Shown one piece after another: positions 92 to 4,217 of a stretch of 4,217 bases of DNA (positions are counted from its first letter, which is position 1; the number at the start of each line of letters is the position of its first letter). Below the pieces are notes generated by a model that did no database searches, was not told where the DNA came from, and worked only from the letters and a program-made list of their open reading frames with translations. Both the position numbers and the translations under genes were made by a program. Location: the IMG/VR virus record IMGVR_UViG_2671180577_000005; one strand, written 5' to 3'. Origin of the DNA: a virus (taxonomy: Duplodnaviria > Heunggongvirae > Uroviricota > Caudoviricetes).

Positions 92-676
92 TTGTCAGTA
101 CACCTCATTGCTCTGCGTTTTCGGGACTGTGAGTTTGATAATTATCTGGAGGTTAATCCTGACGCAGCCAGAAATCTTGCGGCCTGTCGCCGCTATGCGG
201 AGAACTGGCCAGATATGCTGGAGAACGGTACCAGTCTTGTTATGACCGGCAGTTGCGGTACCGGGAAAAATCATCTGGCGGTATCAATGGCAAAACACAT
301 CATCCGTAACTATCTGGCCAGTGTGGAGATCACCGACGTGATGCGCCTTACCCGGGCTGTGAAAAACTGCTGGCGGAATGACAGTGAAAAAACAGCGGAT
401 GACGTCATTGAGCATTATGCGTCACTGGATTTGCTGATTGTCGACGAAGTCGGCGTTCAGTTTGGCAGTGCGGCTGAAATGGCCATTTTGCAGGAAATTA
501 TCAATGCCCGGTATGAGGGTATTTTGCCAACTATCCTGATCAGCAACCTTTCACCGGAAGAATTGTGGGCGTTCATCAGTCCCCGGATTGCCGACAGGAT
601 CACCGATGGCGGGCGCAACTGGTTGTCGTTTAACTGGCCCAGCTACCGTTCTCGTATCGGAGGTGTTGCCGCATGA
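92..676 (+). CDS. DnaC-like AAA+ helicase loader (phage replication protein); N-terminal domain apparently absent and start codon uncertain
   Basis: Translation has Walker A GSCGTGKN (nt 248-271), Walker B DLLIVDEVG (nt 428-454) and C-terminal FNWPSYRSR, which parallels the E. coli DnaC C-terminus (FNWDSYRSR, recalled from memory). Similarity to DnaC begins only at about DnaC residue 65. The only canonical in-frame start after the stop at 80-82 is TTG at 92, with no convincing Shine-Dalgarno. The stop TGA 674-676 overlaps the ATG of the next gene. Confidence 0.8.
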   Translation: MSVHLIALRFRDCEFDNYLEVNPDAARNLAACRRYAENWPDMLENGTSLVMTGSCGTGKNHLAVSMAKHIIRNYLASVEITDVMRLTRAVKNCWRNDSEKTADDVIEHYASLDLLIVDEVGVQFGSAAEMAILQEIINARYEGILPTILISNLSPEELWAFISPRIADRITDGGRNWLSFNWPSYRSRIGGVAA

Positions 677-2073
677 CCAGCCAGAACACCCCGGCATGGC
701 GTAACGATGACCTGGAAGGCGCTGTCATCGGTGCGTTTTTTCTGCGTGGGGCCGATCCGGAAGTGATGGATATTCTGGCCACACTTCCGGCGGATGTATT
801 TTTTGTGCGTCAGTACCGGGATATTTACGCGGGGATTTGCAGACAGGCTCGCATATCCGGCGTCATTGACCCCGTACTGCTGTGCAATGAGATGCCGGAA
901 CTTGCCCCGGTGATTACCGACACCGGACGCAAAACCTGGGTGAAGTCTTCACTGGAGCACTATGTCGCAGCGTTGCGGCGCAATGCCGCACTGCGCGATG
1001 CAGAAAAAACACTGACTGAAGCATTACAGAATTTACGTGATGCGTATACCTGTGAAGCAGCCGAGGATGCCCTGAAGGATGCGCAGAACATGATGGCCTC
1101 ACTGTCGACCGGAAAGGGCGTCATTCAGCCGGTTCACATTGATGATGTCCTTCCGGAAGTGGTCGACCGTGTTGAATGCCGCAATCAGGGACTGGAGAAA
1201 TCCAGGGCGCTGATGACCGGTATTGATGAACTGGACGCAAAAACGGGCGGTATGGAGCCCGGAGACCTGGTATTCATTGCCGCCCGTCCTTCGATGGGGA
1301 AAACCGAACTTGCGCTGGACATCATCGACAAGGTGACTGAGCAGGGGCATGGCGTGCTTCTGTTCACCATGGAGATGGCGAACATCCAGATTGGTGAACG
1401 TATGGTGTCTGCTGCCGGTGGAATGCCGGTATCCCGTCTTAAGTCTGTTGCCCGTTTTGAAGATGAAGACTGGGCGCGTTTCTCGCAGGGCGTGGGACGA
1501 ATGACGGGGCGTAATATCTGGATGGTGGACCAGGCAAACCTGACCATTGATGAGATATGTGCAACCACGAAGCACCACCGGATGAAACACCCGGAAACGG
1601 CGCTGGTGGTGGTCGATTACCTCGGCCTGATTAAAACCCGCAGCACGGGGCGTCACGACCTTGCGGTGGGGGAAATCTCAAAGGGACTTAAAAGCCTGGC
1701 AAAATCCGGCGGTTTTCCGCTGATTGCTCTGAGCCAGCTCTCCCGCGGCGTGGAATCCAGACCCAATAAACGCCCAATGAACTCGGACCTGAAAAACTCC
1801 GGGGAAATCGAGGCGGATGCCGACATCATTCTGATGCTTTACAGGGATGAGGTATACAACCCGGAAACTCAGGCCAGAGGCATAGCAGAAATCAACATCA
1901 CGAAACAGCGTAATGGCACGCTGGGTACCATTTACCGGCGTTTTCATAACGGGCATTTTCTGCCTGTGGATCAGGAGAGTGCCCGGGTTCTTTCCACACC
2001 CATGACGCCGGGCAATCCGCGCAGATACAGCAATAACCGCATGTCGGGCAGTAAAACGGAGCGTTTATTTTGA
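673..2073 (+). CDS. DnaB-family replicative DNA helicase (phage-encoded)
   Basis: 466-aa ORF with a DnaB-like N-terminal domain (LEGAVIGAFFL...), Walker A ARPSMGKT (nt 1282-1305), and motifs DEDWARF, VVVDYLGL and ALSQLSRGVESRPNKRPMNSDLKNSGEIEADADIILMLYRDEVYN that closely track E. coli DnaB (recalled). SD GGAGG at 659-663 lies 9 nt upstream of ATG 673. ATGA overlap with the upstream gene. Confidence 0.92.
   Translation: MTSQNTPAWRNDDLEGAVIGAFFLRGADPEVMDILATLPADVFFVRQYRDIYAGICRQARISGVIDPVLLCNEMPELAPVITDTGRKTWVKSSLEHYVAALRRNAALRDAEKTLTEALQNLRDAYTCEAAEDALKDAQNMMASLSTGKGVIQPVHIDDVLPEVVDRVECRNQGLEKSRALMTGIDELDAKTGGMEPGDLVFIAARPSMGKTELALDIIDKVTEQGHGVLLFTMEMANIQIGERMVSAAGGMPVSRLKSVARFEDEDWARFSQGVGRMTGRNIWMVDQANLTIDEICATTKHHRMKHPETALVVVDYLGLIKTRSTGRHDLAVGEISKGLKSLAKSGGFPLIALSQLSRGVESRPNKRPMNSDLKNSGEIEADADIILMLYRDEVYNPETQARGIAEINITKQRNGTLGTIYRRFHNGHFLPVDQESARVLSTPMTPGNPRRYSNNRMSGSKTERLF
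1602..1609 (+). other. Chi octamer 5'-GCTGGTGG-3'
   Basis: Exact match on + strand, within the dnaB-like gene (codons ALVV). Confidence 0.9.
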
Positions 2074-2327
2074 ACAACAGAACAATCACTGTTTCACCGG
2101 AACAACTTCGTCGGCAGGCGCAGGAGATGCTTCGTTGTGCTGAACAGATGGAAAAAACGAGCGTGGCAAAAGATACGCTCCGCAAGCAGCTTACTCCGGC
2201 GCTTCGTGATCTGCTGCAGGCAAAACACCGTACACAAAAGGCGGTGGATGAGCTGGTGGATTGCGTGGAGGAACTGGAAGGACAGGTAAGCCAGTTTGAA
2301 ACGCTGGTGAAGGAGTTTACTGCGTGA
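2070..2327 (+). CDS. hypothetical small coiled-coil protein (nin-region-like), function unknown
   Basis: 85-codon ORF in the operon orientation. TTG start at 2070 overlaps the helicase stop (TTGA) and has SD GGAG at 2058-2061; alternative ATG starts at 2127 or 2148. Charged, heptad-like sequence (EQLRRQAQEMLRCAEQMEK...VDELVDCVEELEGQVSQFETLVKEF). The opposite-strand ORF 1898..2389 is Ser/Cys-rich and low-complexity, so the + strand is favoured. Confidence 0.5.
   Translation: MNNRTITVSPEQLRRQAQEMLRCAEQMEKTSVAKDTLRKQLTPALRDLLQAKHRTQKAVDELVDCVEELEGQVSQFETLVKEFTA
2252..2259 (+). other. Chi octamer 5'-GCTGGTGG-3'
   Basis: Exact match on + strand, within the 85-aa ORF (codons ELVD). Confidence 0.9.
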
Positions 2328-2373
2328 TGGCTGAATTTTTTTCTCCTGCGTTCATGCAATACCGTTCGCTGAG

Positions 2374-3369
2374 GTGACCGTGAGAGCACTGCTGACCCCT
2401 GAAATTGCCCCGCGTATGGGGATCGTCTTGTTCAGACCCGGTTCAGAGCTGATGCCCCTGTTTATGCAGGGGCGTGTCCTGCTGGAGCCTGAGCCGGAAC
2501 GTTATTCATCTTTTGCCAGTGGTGCCGTTCCGGCAGCATCACAACCGCTGGCGGATGATCCTGCCGTTCGGGCCGTGTTCCGCCATGAGGCGGTGATCCG
2601 TCGTGCTGGTGGTGTGGAATGCCTTGAGAGCTGGTTACTTCGTGAAAAAGGCTGCCAGTGGCCTCATTCCGGATGGCACAGCGAGAACATGACCACAATG
2701 CGACACGCGCCGGGCGCAATCCGTCTGTGCTGGCACTGCGATAACCTGCTTCGCGATCAGTTCACGGAACGTCTGGAATCAATGGCAACGGATAACTGTG
2801 CCCGCTGGGTGTTGTCCGTAGTCCGTCGTGATCTCGGTTTTGATGACAGCCACGTTGTGACAATGCCGGAACTGTGCTGGTGGCTGGTTCGTAATGACCT
2901 GGCGGATGCCTTACCGGAAAGTGCAGCCCGTAAGGCACTGAGATTACCGAAGCCTGTTGTGCCGTCTGTCACCCGGGAAAGTGACCTTGTGCCTTCGGTT
3001 CCTGCCACCAGCATCATCCGGGATAAGGCGAAAAAGGTGCTGGCGCTGAAAGTGGATCCGGAGTCGCCGGAGTCTTTTATGTTACGCCCCAAACGTCGTC
3101 GCTGGGTTAATGAAAAGTACACGCGCTGGGTTAAGACGCAGCCGTGTGCATGTTGTGGTAAGCCAGCCGACGATCCTCATCACCTGATTGGTCATGGTCA
3201 GGGTGGAATGGGTACAAAAGCGCATGACCTTTTTGTGTTGCCTTTGTGCAGAAAACACCATGACGAACTGCATGCGGATACCGTGGCATTTGAAGAGAAG
3301 TATGGTTCCCAACTGGAGCTGATATTTCGTTTTATCGATCGCGCGCTGGCGATTGGTGTGCTGTCCTGA
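2374..3369 (+). CDS. Cys/His-rich prophage protein with C-terminal YdfU/YbcO-like (DUF968/DUF1364-type) putative zinc-binding, nuclease-like motif; N-terminal domain of unknown function
   Basis: 331-codon ORF; start GTG 2374 or, more likely, GTG 2380 (SD GAGG at 2371-2374). C-terminal motif QPCACCGKPADDPHHLIGHGQGGMGTKAHDLFVLPLCRKHHDELH (nt about 3112-3273) matches my recollection of the Cys/His pattern of E. coli prophage proteins YdfU/YbcO. N-terminal region has C83, C94 and CWHC at 119-122 with several His. Pro/Ser-rich linker at about residues 190-235. Lies between the replication genes and Q, as nin-region genes do. Confidence 0.7.
   Translation: MTVRALLTPEIAPRMGIVLFRPGSELMPLFMQGRVLLEPEPERYSSFASGAVPAASQPLADDPAVRAVFRHEAVIRRAGGVECLESWLLREKGCQWPHSGWHSENMTTMRHAPGAIRLCWHCDNLLRDQFTERLESMATDNCARWVLSVVRRDLGFDDSHVVTMPELCWWLVRNDLADALPESAARKALRLPKPVVPSVTRESDLVPSVPATSIIRDKAKKVLALKVDPESPESFMLRPKRRRWVNEKYTRWVKTQPCACCGKPADDPHHLIGHGQGGMGTKAHDLFVLPLCRKHHDELHADTVAFEEKYGSQLELIFRFIDRALAIGVLS
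2605..2612 (+). other. Chi octamer 5'-GCTGGTGG-3'
   Basis: Exact match on + strand, within the 331-aa ORF (codons RAGGV). Confidence 0.9.
2876..2883 (+). other. Chi octamer 5'-GCTGGTGG-3'
   Basis: Exact match on + strand, within the 331-aa ORF (codons CWWL). Confidence 0.9.
3005..3012 (-). other. Chi octamer on the minus strand (CCACCAGC as read on +)
   Basis: The only reverse-orientation Chi I found by manual scan. Confidence 0.85.
3058..3075. repeat. tandem 9-bp direct repeat CCGGAGTCG / CCGGAGTCT (encodes PES-PES) inside the 331-aa gene
   Basis: Read directly from the sequence: 3058-3066 and 3067-3075 differ at one base. Confidence 0.85.
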
Positions 3370-3386
3370 TTTTGTGGAGAAAGTTG

Positions 3387-3767
3387 ATGCGTGATATTCA
3401 GATGGTTCTTGAACGCTGGGGGGCATGGGCTGCAAGTGGTAACACCGGGGTGGACTATTCTCCGATCGCTGCCGGATTCAAAGGACTTTTACCATCTGCC
3501 ACTAAACCACGTCCGGCCTGCTGCGATGATGACGGACTTATCATTGAAAACTGTCTTGCTCGTCTGAAGCAGAAAAAACCTGAGGAGTATTCGCTTCTCA
3601 TTGCTCATTATTTGTTGCGAATATCAAAAAGACAGATAGCCAGGAAGAGAAAGAAAAGCGAAAAAGCAATACGAATTGAGATGCAGATAGCCGAAGGGTT
3701 TATTGACGGATGTTTGTCTGTGCTGGGGGTAAGACTGGAGATGGACGACTGGCTGCTAAAAAAGTAA
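3387..3767 (+). CDS. late-gene antitermination protein Q (short Q family, QuuD-like)
   Basis: 126-aa product from ATG 3387 with SD GGAG at 3376-3379; the ORF track's 3372 start is an upstream TTG extension. The N-terminus MRDIQMVLERWGAWAA and the CCDDD motif match my recollection of the short antiterminator Q family of E. coli prophages. It is followed by a promoter-like region and a strong intrinsic terminator, as expected for Q/PR'/tR'. Confidence 0.75.
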   Translation: MRDIQMVLERWGAWAASGNTGVDYSPIAAGFKGLLPSATKPRPACCDDDGLIIENCLARLKQKKPEEYSLLIAHYLLRISKRQIARKRKKSEKAIRIEMQIAEGFIDGCLSVLGVRLEMDDWLLKK

Positions 3768-3835
3768 AAAATGATTAGTGCGGTCCGCAAAAAGTATGTC
3801 AGTATGTTAAGAGTGGTTACTTCGCCACACAGCTT
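3768..3835 (+). promoter_or_regulatory. candidate late promoter (PR'-like) and Q-utilisation (qut) region
   Basis: Intergenic, AT-rich, immediately downstream of Q and upstream of the terminator. Tandem -10-like elements TATGTC (3795-3800) and TATGTT (3803-3808) sit within a direct repeat AGTATGT-c-AGTATGT (3794-3808). Possible -35 TGATTA at 3772-3777 (17-bp spacer). Alternative pair TGGACG (3742-3747) and TAAAAA (3765-3770). Exact hexamers and transcription start are not resolvable by eye. Confidence 0.3.
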
Positions 3836-3861
3836 AAACCCGCCGCGAGCGGGTTTTTTTA
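3836..3861 (+). terminator. rho-independent terminator (tR'-like) downstream of Q
   Basis: GC-rich hairpin, arms CCCGC (3839-3843) and GCGGG (3849-3853) around loop CGCGA, followed by a 7-T run (3854-3860). Confidence 0.8.
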
Positions 3862-3891
3862 TGGCTGAAATCGGTCCAGTACAGTAAACGT

Positions 3892-3899
3892 GCTGGTGG
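3892..3899 (+). other. Chi octamer 5'-GCTGGTGG-3'
   Basis: Exact match on + strand, intergenic, just downstream of the tR'-like terminator. Confidence 0.9.
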
Positions 3900-3982
3900 C
3901 GGTGAATACCTGTCTTTCAGCTTGCTGGCTTTTTCGACAAGAGTTATTGGTGTGTCACGTTAACCGAAAAAGGGAAAAAGAC

Positions 3983-4180
3983 ATGCTAAAACAGCAGGAT
4001 ATGACAGAAACCGCCAGAGTGGTGTTTAATGAATTAAGCGTTACCGAACCGGCGACAGTCGGGGAGATAGCGCAGAATACTTACCTTTCACGCGAACGCT
4101 GCCAGTTAATACTGACTCAGCTGGTTATGGCGGGTCTGGCAGACTATCAGTTCGGTTGTTACAGACGCCTTCCGCAGTGA
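3983..4180 (+). CDS. small (65 aa) putative winged-helix DNA-binding protein (PapI/FaeA-like pattern), moron-like gene downstream of Q
   Basis: ATG 3983 with SD AGGGA at 3971-3975 (7-nt spacer). The ORF track's longer version from GTG 3890 lacks an SD and would start inside the terminator-proximal region. Segment TVGEIAQNTYLSRERCQLILTQLVMAGLA has the helix-turn-helix pattern of small wHTH regulators. Its stop overlaps an intrinsic terminator. Confidence 0.5.
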   Translation: MLKQQDMTETARVVFNELSVTEPATVGEIAQNTYLSRERCQLILTQLVMAGLADYQFGCYRRLPQ

Positions 4181-4190
4181 AGGCTTTTTT
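4167..4190 (+). terminator. rho-independent terminator after the small wHTH ORF
   Basis: Arms GCCTTC (4167-4172) and GAAGGC (4179-4184) around loop CGCAGT, followed by a 6-T run (4185-4190). The stop codon TGA 4178-4180 lies within the stem-loop. Confidence 0.7.
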
Positions 4191-4208
4191 ATTTGTGGTA
4201 AATGGGCG

Positions 4209-4216
4209 GCTGGTGG
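4209..4216 (+). other. Chi octamer 5'-GCTGGTGG-3'
   Basis: Exact match on + strand, intergenic, after the second terminator at the window edge. Confidence 0.9.
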
Positions 4217-4217
4217 G

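Follow-up and report, generated by a model that had tools for sequence, protein, structure and literature searches.

The question raised by this stretch of DNA is why a few kilobases of a prophage should carry so many copies of one octamer. The stretch, hereafter the window, is 4,217 nucleotides (nt) in its full length (IMG/VR virus record IMGVR_UViG_2671180577_000005) and is the DnaC/DnaB-DUF968-Q segment of a lambdoid prophage of the Shiga toxin (Stx) 2a-phage/yecE type. The octamer is Chi, taken here as exactly 5'-GCTGGTGG-3'. The answer that we consider highly probable is that a lambdoid lineage with neither recombination (Rec) genes nor a RecBCD inhibitor has accumulated top-strand Chi between its replication origin and the cos/terminase region, co-opting the RecBCD enzyme of the host. 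The six + strand sites of the window are the origin-proximal half of this Chi array. A pattern search of both window strands located the following sites, and all seven positions reported in the original prediction (six on the + strand, one on the - strand) proved exact:

1602-1609, + strand: Chi in the DnaB-like helicase gene, in third-codon phase, gcG-CTG-GTG-Gtg (Ala-Leu-Val-Val)
2252-2259, + strand: Chi in an open reading frame (ORF) of 85 amino acids (aa), gaG-CTG-GTG-Gat (Glu-Leu-Val-Asp)
2605-2612, + strand: Chi in the DUF968/HNH-like gene, GCT-GGT-GGt (Ala-Gly-Gly)
2876-2883, + strand: Chi in the DUF968 gene, tGC-TGG-TGG (Cys-Trp-Trp)
3005-3012, - strand: the sole opposite-strand Chi, reading CCACCAGC on the + strand, in the DUF968 gene, gCC-ACC-AGC (Ala-Thr-Ser)
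3892-3899, + strand: intergenic Chi, 36 nt 3' of the post-Q hairpin at 3836-3856
4209-4216, + strand: intergenic Chi, about 25 nt 3' of the hairpin at 4167-4184, forming the left arm of a 12-bp inverted repeat

Re-reading against the gene frames also upheld the codon contexts that had been given for the four coding + strand sites. The flanks of the sites differed, and no extended motif or repeat common to them was seen.

The + strand count was far above expectation. Dinucleotide-preserving shuffles gave a mean of 0.16 matches on both strands together, and none of 200 shuffles reached seven; a first-order Markov model of the window predicted 0.169 sites on the + strand (P of at least 6 = 3e-8) and 0.042 on the - strand, so that the single - strand site was, if anything, also in excess. 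The original prediction had described the cluster as strongly strand-biased. While the number of + strand sites was indeed anomalous, the bias itself was ordinary, because a +:- ratio of 4:1 is expected from composition and about 33:1 from codon shuffling, and the observed 6:1 split had a P of 0.58. Strand bias was consequently rejected as evidence in itself.

The same figures bear on the simplest rival explanation, in which Chi is a by-product of composition and codon usage: the genes lie on the G-rich strand, and Chi arises from favoured codons (CTG, GTG, GGT, TGG) without any selection for it. Composition alone does give the 4:1 strand ratio; the 24 one-mismatch variants of Chi taken together numbered eight on the + strand and zero on the - strand, about 3.5 times expectation; and the Cys-Trp-Trp site at 2876 is nearly obligatory given the amino acid sequence. 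When synonymous codons were shuffled within each gene 5,000 times, however, the coding + strand sites averaged 0.89 vs. 4 observed (P=2e-4), most of the 0.89 being supplied by the site at 2876, and 0.027 sites were expected on the - strand vs. 1 observed. The codon-shuffled control thus did not reproduce the Chi count. The sites at 3892 and 4209 lie beyond the reach of codon usage because they are non-coding; two + strand sites within 321 nt of non-coding DNA compare with 0.013 expected (P=9e-5). Moreover, the exact octamer stood at about 75 times expectation on the + strand, and was thus about 20 times more enriched than its one-mismatch neighbours. The caution attached to the original prediction, that codon usage accounts for part of the bias, was therefore right in kind, with a small effect of about one in four coding sites (Cys-Trp-Trp): codon usage and G-richness are real contributors that cover roughly one site.

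A further control came from the distribution of Chi along relatives of the window, which are designated L001, L002 and so on. The most informative was L001, a complete 48.7-kb Stx2a phage with 13 + strand and 3 - strand sites, in which region-wise codon shuffling gave the expectations listed here:

L001, + strand Chi: 7061, 8650, 9303, 11423, 12073, 12425, 12696, 13713, 14030, 21374, 21775, 21822 and 47974
L001, - strand Chi: 8550, 12825 and 14845
L001, cro-to-Q block: 9 + strand sites vs. 3.26 expected, including 2 fixed intergenic sites
L001, stx and lysis block: 3 + strand sites vs. 1.08 expected
L001, early-left operon: 0 + strand sites vs. 0.07 expected
L001, morphogenesis block of 22.4 kb: 0 + strand sites vs. 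2.9 expected (deficit, P=0.03)

The terminase genes of L001 begin at 23.8 kb, and 12 of the 13 + strand sites fell between 7.0 and 21.8 kb, within 17 kb of the packaging site on its left side. The morphogenesis block, in contrast, was devoid of Chi even though it is transcribed from the same strand and has a guanine-plus-cytosine (GC) content of 0.57 and a GC skew of 0.14, both above those of the Chi-rich blocks; the Chi-rich arm had a GC content of 0.50-0.51, below that of the Chi-free arm. The prophage part of L002 carried 12 + strand and 5 - strand sites. Phage mEp460, which is deposited in virion orientation, has two elements in common with the module, namely the DUF968 gene and, upstream of its methylase gene, the Chi/hairpin island. 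It carried 16 sites on the top strand, 14 of them in its right half and 11 in its rightmost 26%, as opposed to 4 on the bottom strand. In the literature, lambda and phage LLS have near-identical codon usage yet 0 vs. 23 Chi sites, and codon usage and GC content were excluded as explanations by Zheng et al. (PMC12315714). As a complete explanation, codon usage or composition was effectively refuted by the codon null model, the intergenic sites, the near-Chi variants and the morphogenesis control, and we regard it as very improbable.

The Chi content of the host was also at odds with that of the window. The density of Chi was one per 436 bp, about ten times that of the Escherichia coli genome, which averages one per 4.6 kb (PMC12315714), and the counts that the original prediction had proposed for the rest of the element and for the host revealed no matching density elsewhere: there was no Chi in the 22.4 kb of morphogenesis genes, one in 9 kb of host DNA flanking the prophage and two in 13 kb of the empty yecE region of strain K-12. 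These figures weigh on a second rival explanation, namely that the host chromosome selects for Chi within a resident cryptic prophage, where the sites would serve the repair of collapsed replication forks. Such selection would suit a prophage whose replication gene is interrupted by IS600, as in the window copy, and the prophage top strand at yecE coincides with the leading strand of the left replichore, the polarity that predominates among host Chi sites; the positions of oriC and ter used for this assignment are textbook knowledge. The same caveat was raised for prophage data by Zheng et al. (PMC12315714). Besides the tenfold difference in density and the sparse local flanks, two observations stand against it. 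Genomes deposited as those of phages (mEp460, ASU11, PhiR49_2 and Stx2a-converting phages) carry these sites as well, and enrichment is seen only in the origin-to-cos arm, the other arm of the prophage showing a deficit, a pattern that does not fit uniform chromosomal selection. The E. coli chromosome shares with the window the octamer and its polarity relative to the leading strand at yecE, but differs in its lower density and in the genome-wide, rather than one-armed, occurrence of Chi. Chromosomal selection is unlikely as the explanation and remains as a minor contributor.

Thousands of contigs encode proteins identical to the DnaB-like and DUF968 proteins of the window, and the complete lambdoid gene order (int-xis, early-left, cI/cro, replication, Q, lysis, terminase, morphogenesis) was seen in L001, L002 and 16 further contexts. 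The gene content of these 16 contexts was judged by precomputed Pfam matches, with four of them (L004, L007, L008 and L012) spanning the operon from int/xis to cI; no gene in the 16 matched the Pfam families of Gam, YqaJ/Exo, RecT/Bet, Erf, SSB or Abc2. Likewise, no annotated exo, bet or gam was present in the short early-left operon of L001 and L002. Scanned against PHROG, the early-left ORFs of three backbones of different types (30 in all) matched only unknown-function, SPFH-lipoprotein, membrane-protein and regulator families, and six-frame tblastn searches with lambda Exo, Bet and Gam gave nothing at E<=0.1 in any locus, with a working positive control. The suggestion that the phage may lack a Gam-like inhibitor was therefore borne out in the relatives by all three kinds of search, including the gam homologue search called for at the time, which was run on the relatives' loci and gave no match. 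Judged from its relatives, the lineage appears to encode no recognisable recombination module or RecBCD inhibitor. Their terminases were either of the lambda type (Nu1/GpA) or of the HK97/P27 type with an HNH partner.

This combination of features is known. In an analysis of 275 lambdoid phages and prophages of E. coli and Salmonella, Bobay, Touchon and Rocha (2013) already found Chi to be concentrated between the origin and the packaging site (PMC3784561). Zheng et al. (2025) isolated phage LLS, which lacks a Rec module and has 20 of its 23 Chi sites on the active strand, clustering at the right end; it grew better with RecB and RecC, whereas RecD brought no such gain. Of 68 other Enterobacteriales lambdoid phages that they found to lack a Rec module, 62 had 8-25 top-strand and at most 6 bottom-strand sites (PMC12315714). 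The pattern reported here is that of the "no Rec module, high Chi" class of Zheng et al. (2025) and the Rec- Inh- class of Bobay et al. (2013). With at least 8 top-strand and at most 6 bottom-strand sites per genome as the defining counts, L001 (13+/3-), the L002 prophage (12+/5-) and mEp460 (16+/4-) all fall within the class, the window alone contributing 6+/1-. The other class features were found as well: the lambdoid layout, the early-left region of close relatives without Exo, strand-annealing protein, SSB or anti-RecBCD function, 13-16 top-strand vs. 3-4 bottom-strand sites per genome with Chi as the commonest octamer, clustering from the origin to the right end, and an excess beyond codon usage and GC content. 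Since every testable defining feature of the published class was present, the window is one more instance of an already known phenomenon, and its initial interpretation amounts to an independent rediscovery. The early-left genes of mEp460 are even of the yfdR/Q/P type found in LLS. Differences from LLS lie in the replication module, which here consists of a DnaC-like loader and a DnaB-like helicase, in the early-left gene sets, which here are of the SPFH/DUF5406/DUF4222 or the Ead/Ea22 type, in the IS600 disruption of the window copy, and in the RecBCD dependence, which here is argued by analogy.

The proposed mechanism was drawn from the lambda red gam chi+ paradigm and from phage LLS. Entry of RecBCD at the right end and leftward reading of top-strand Chi are described by Zheng et al. 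(PMC12315714, citing Kobayashi, 1982; Faulds, 1979; Taylor, 1985). The orientation assigned to the window sites in the original prediction agrees with this, as they lie on the top strand of the early-right/late transcription unit with terminase and cos to their right. During lytic growth, terminase would cleave cos and remain on the left end, which would be occluded, while the right end would stay open. RecBCD would then load at the right end and move leftward through the lysis genes, Q, the nin-equivalent region and the replication genes, meeting each top-strand Chi from its 3' side. Recognition of any one of about 12 sites would change the enzyme from degradation to loading of RecA on the 3' strand, so that phage DNA would be spared and recombination with sister copies could yield concatemers for packaging. 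We infer on these grounds that RecBCD would act on the sites and that the phage would benefit. The reading of the sites as protective was accordingly supported, with the qualification that the published model stresses RecBCD/RecA recombination into packageable concatemers and not protection alone; the two are compatible because both follow from one Chi-induced switch of RecBCD. The lambda paradigm would apply directly to relatives with a Nu1/GpA terminase, and by analogy to those with the HK97/P27 type. Lambda red gam chi+ mutants (Lam, 1974; Henderson and Weil, 1975; Kobayashi, 1982; in PMC12315714) resemble the present lineage in being lambdoid phages without Red or Gam, and their growth needs RecBCD at top-strand Chi reached from the cos-made right end (PMC12315714); they differ in being laboratory mutants with one Chi, as opposed to a natural lineage with about 12. 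Phage P1, with 50 Chi sites in 94.8 kb and a need for RecA and RecBCD (PMC12315714), is likewise temperate, Chi-dense and reliant on host recombination, with Chi as its most frequent octamer, but it is neither lambdoid nor integrated, and recombination there circularises terminal repeats.

Several relatives have three top-strand Chi sites inside their lysis cassette (from endolysin to the Rz region), packed into about 450 bp at a distance of 2-3 kb from the terminase genes. A RecBCD enzyme entering at the right end would reach this trio before any other Chi:

L001, 20956-22281, top strand: lysis-cassette Chi trio
L004, 20284-20733, top strand: lysis-cassette Chi trio
L005, 18649-19098, top strand: lysis-cassette Chi trio
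L006, 19397-19846, top strand: lysis-cassette Chi trio
L009, 19073-19522, top strand: lysis-cassette Chi trio

The same molecular switch at Chi could serve another end. A third explanation holds that the array marks the DNA as "self". Both the destruction triggered by restriction and the acquisition of CRISPR spacers that depends on RecBCD would thereby be limited, and the array would play no part in forming concatemers. This explanation fits the protective wording of the original prediction, and Chi as a discriminator of self from non-self was discussed by Bobay et al. (PMC3784561). However, the published association of Chi enrichment is with a missing phage recombination module and not with a defence context (PMC12315714; PMC3784561), and LLS grows worse without RecB or RecC (PMC12315714), which indicates that the phage needs RecBCD and does not simply evade it. 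In addition, the one-sided polarity would guard against entry from one end only. We consider defence evasion improbable as the sole function, and the co-option of RecBCD by a Rec-less phage lineage is the reading retained here.

Conservation of the individual sites was also followed. Among 18 close relatives with 96-99.7% identity, Chi was mostly kept, with occasional single-base losses. The site at 1602 was kept in 17 of the 18, the sequence in L009 being GCTGGTTG, and read ACTGGTGG in the 86%-identical helicase orthologue of Stx1_14744. The site at 2252 was kept in 18 of 18 and lay within a 15-nt identical island of an orthologue just 69% identical overall. The site at 2605 was polymorphic, with ACTGGTGG in L003, L004 and L006, and was kept in mEp460, Stx2a_1447 and the 79%-identical orthologue of a Salmonella phage. 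The site at 2876 was kept in all relatives, including the Salmonella and Klebsiella orthologues (the latter with 67% amino acid identity, by tblastn), and the site at 3892 was replaced by GCTGGCGG in L014. The - strand site at 3005, whose orientation should make it inactive when RecBCD comes in from the right, was likewise kept in all relatives including the Salmonella orthologue, which thus retains both + strand sites and the - strand site of the DUF968 gene. The equal retention of the - strand site shows that constraint on the protein is part of the reason why sites in DUF968 are conserved, and per-site conservation was downgraded as proof of selection for Chi. The counterpart 7-kb regions of a Salmonella phage (11+/2-) and a Klebsiella phage (8+/0-) carried Chi at mostly non-orthologous positions. 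Density and polarity persist while individual sites turn over, the behaviour also proposed by Zheng et al. (2025; PMC12315714).

Several points weigh against the co-option of RecBCD as set out above. The IS600 insertion in the dnaC-like gene means that, in this copy, the sites may be relics without current phage function, and at yecE the top strand is the chromosomal leading strand too, so that the polarity also suits the host. The absence of Rec genes was observed in relatives, in which the many early-left ORFs of unknown function could hide an unrecognised RecBCD inhibitor or recombinase. Conservation of single sites is not clean evidence of selection for Chi, since the protein forces at least the Cys-Trp-Trp site and the - strand site is as conserved as the + strand sites of DUF968. 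Finally, RecBCD dependence of this particular element is a prediction from lambda and LLS.

The Chi at 4209 has a setting of its own. A perfect inverted repeat of 12 bp, GGCTGGTGGGTG-(8 nt)-CACCCACCAGCC, which lies at 4207-4217 of the window and continues at 24101-24132 of L002, has this Chi as its left arm. In L002, the closest relative, the right arm, just past the window edge, is a - strand Chi. The repeat lies between a terminator-like hairpin and an N6/N4 DNA methylase gene, and as RNA the region has a folding energy of -33.7 kcal/mol (z=-4.4). The left arm was invariant in 14 loci; the right arm varied, and flanks were replaced at mosaic junctions. The right-arm variants (beginning CACTCACC and CACCTGCC) all keep pairing as G.U, in + strand RNA only. 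An Rfam search of the window-equivalent region gave nothing above gathering scores, the two matches (E 0.15 and 0.51) being noise. Unrelated sequence begins directly 3' of a segment ending in GCTGGTGGGTG in L005 (~13533-13560) and L014 (~11819-11846), and directly 5' of AAATGGGCGG in L008 (~14096-14115) and mEp460/L020 (~40873-40892). These positions correspond to about 4195-4217 of the window, and on the anecdotal evidence of these four loci the Chi at 4209 would seem to sit exactly at a module boundary. The island of about 20 bp, ATGGGCGGCTGGTGGGTGT, is invariant across backbones, has mosaic junctions on either side and forms the 5' arm of a very stable hairpin. It might be a boundary element for Chi-stimulated swaps of late cassettes among Rec-less prophages, and/or a functional RNA stem-loop of the late transcript upstream of the methylase gene, a doubtful suggestion that is based on three haplotypes with one-sided changes only.

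The remaining features of the window, in which all genes lie on the + strand, were as follows:

1-106: right end of IS600 (IS3 family), with its junction at 106/107 inside the dnaC-like loader gene
To 676, + strand: DnaC/IstB-like helicase loader (IstB/DnaC-like match)
673-2073, + strand: DnaB-type helicase (DnaB_C match)
2070-2327, + strand: small ORF of 85 aa
2380-3369, + strand: DUF968 protein with HNH-like C-terminus
3387-3767, + strand: antiterminator Q (Phage_antitermQ match)
3836-3856: terminator-like hairpin with T-run, 3' of the Q gene, equivalent to L002 23730-23750
3983-4180, + strand: ORF of 65 aa
4167-4184: second terminator-like hairpin with T-run

Positions 107-4217 were up to 99.0% identical to a lambdoid prophage at yecE in many E. 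coli genomes and matched a group of Stx2a-converting phages at 97.4%; 145 E. coli genomes carry the module at a coverage of at least 80%. Positions 1-106 showed 99.1% identity over the full 106 nt to thousands of annotated IS600 copies. The insertion deletes about 100 N-terminal codons of the loader, whose intact gene in relatives encodes 292-299 aa, and since it interrupts the helicase-loader gene, the prophage copy in the window is probably replication-defective. The IS600/dnaC junction was not found in any of the 5,426 complete E. coli genomes searched (megablast with positions 1-330), an exact look-up of the truncated DnaC-like ORF in a protein-position index gave no match, and the exact junction 41-mer had none in species-representative genomes; the loci returned for the exact DUF968 protein were relatives only, all without the IS600 junction. 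Near-identical modules are present in records deposited as phage genomes (ASU11, PhiR49_2 and Stx2a-converting phages). A simple sigma-70 scan from Q to the methylase gene found no promoter.

Two side observations concern neighbouring genes. At its C-terminus, the DUF968 (YdfU) protein carries the motif CxxC...HH...CxxHH; it has a marginal Pfam match to HNHc_6 (E=4.5e-6, 26.8 bits vs. a cut-off of 26.6 bits), and its gene occupies the nin-region position beside Q, adjoining RusA in L009, L012, mEp460 and Stx2a_1447. By analogy with lambda NinG/Rap, it might be a structure-specific nuclease acting with RecBCD-initiated recombination. In L011, an extra block at 13147-16005 lies between Q and the small ORF and consists of a C5 DNA methylase gene followed, on the opposite strand, by genes with HEPN (HEPN_MAE_28990) and GmrSD_N domains. 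The block looks like a defence island, at the position that holds Stx genes or other morons in other relatives.

The window is thus a clean, well-controlled example of a Rec-less temperate phage that probably co-opts the host RecBCD-Chi pathway. Publications of 2013 and 2025 already contain the principle, the polarity, the clustering from origin to cos and the connection with a lost Rec module, to which this locus adds an instance and not a concept. Because many of the relatives are Shiga-toxin-converting phages, dependence on RecBCD could bear on the induction and spread of toxin phages.

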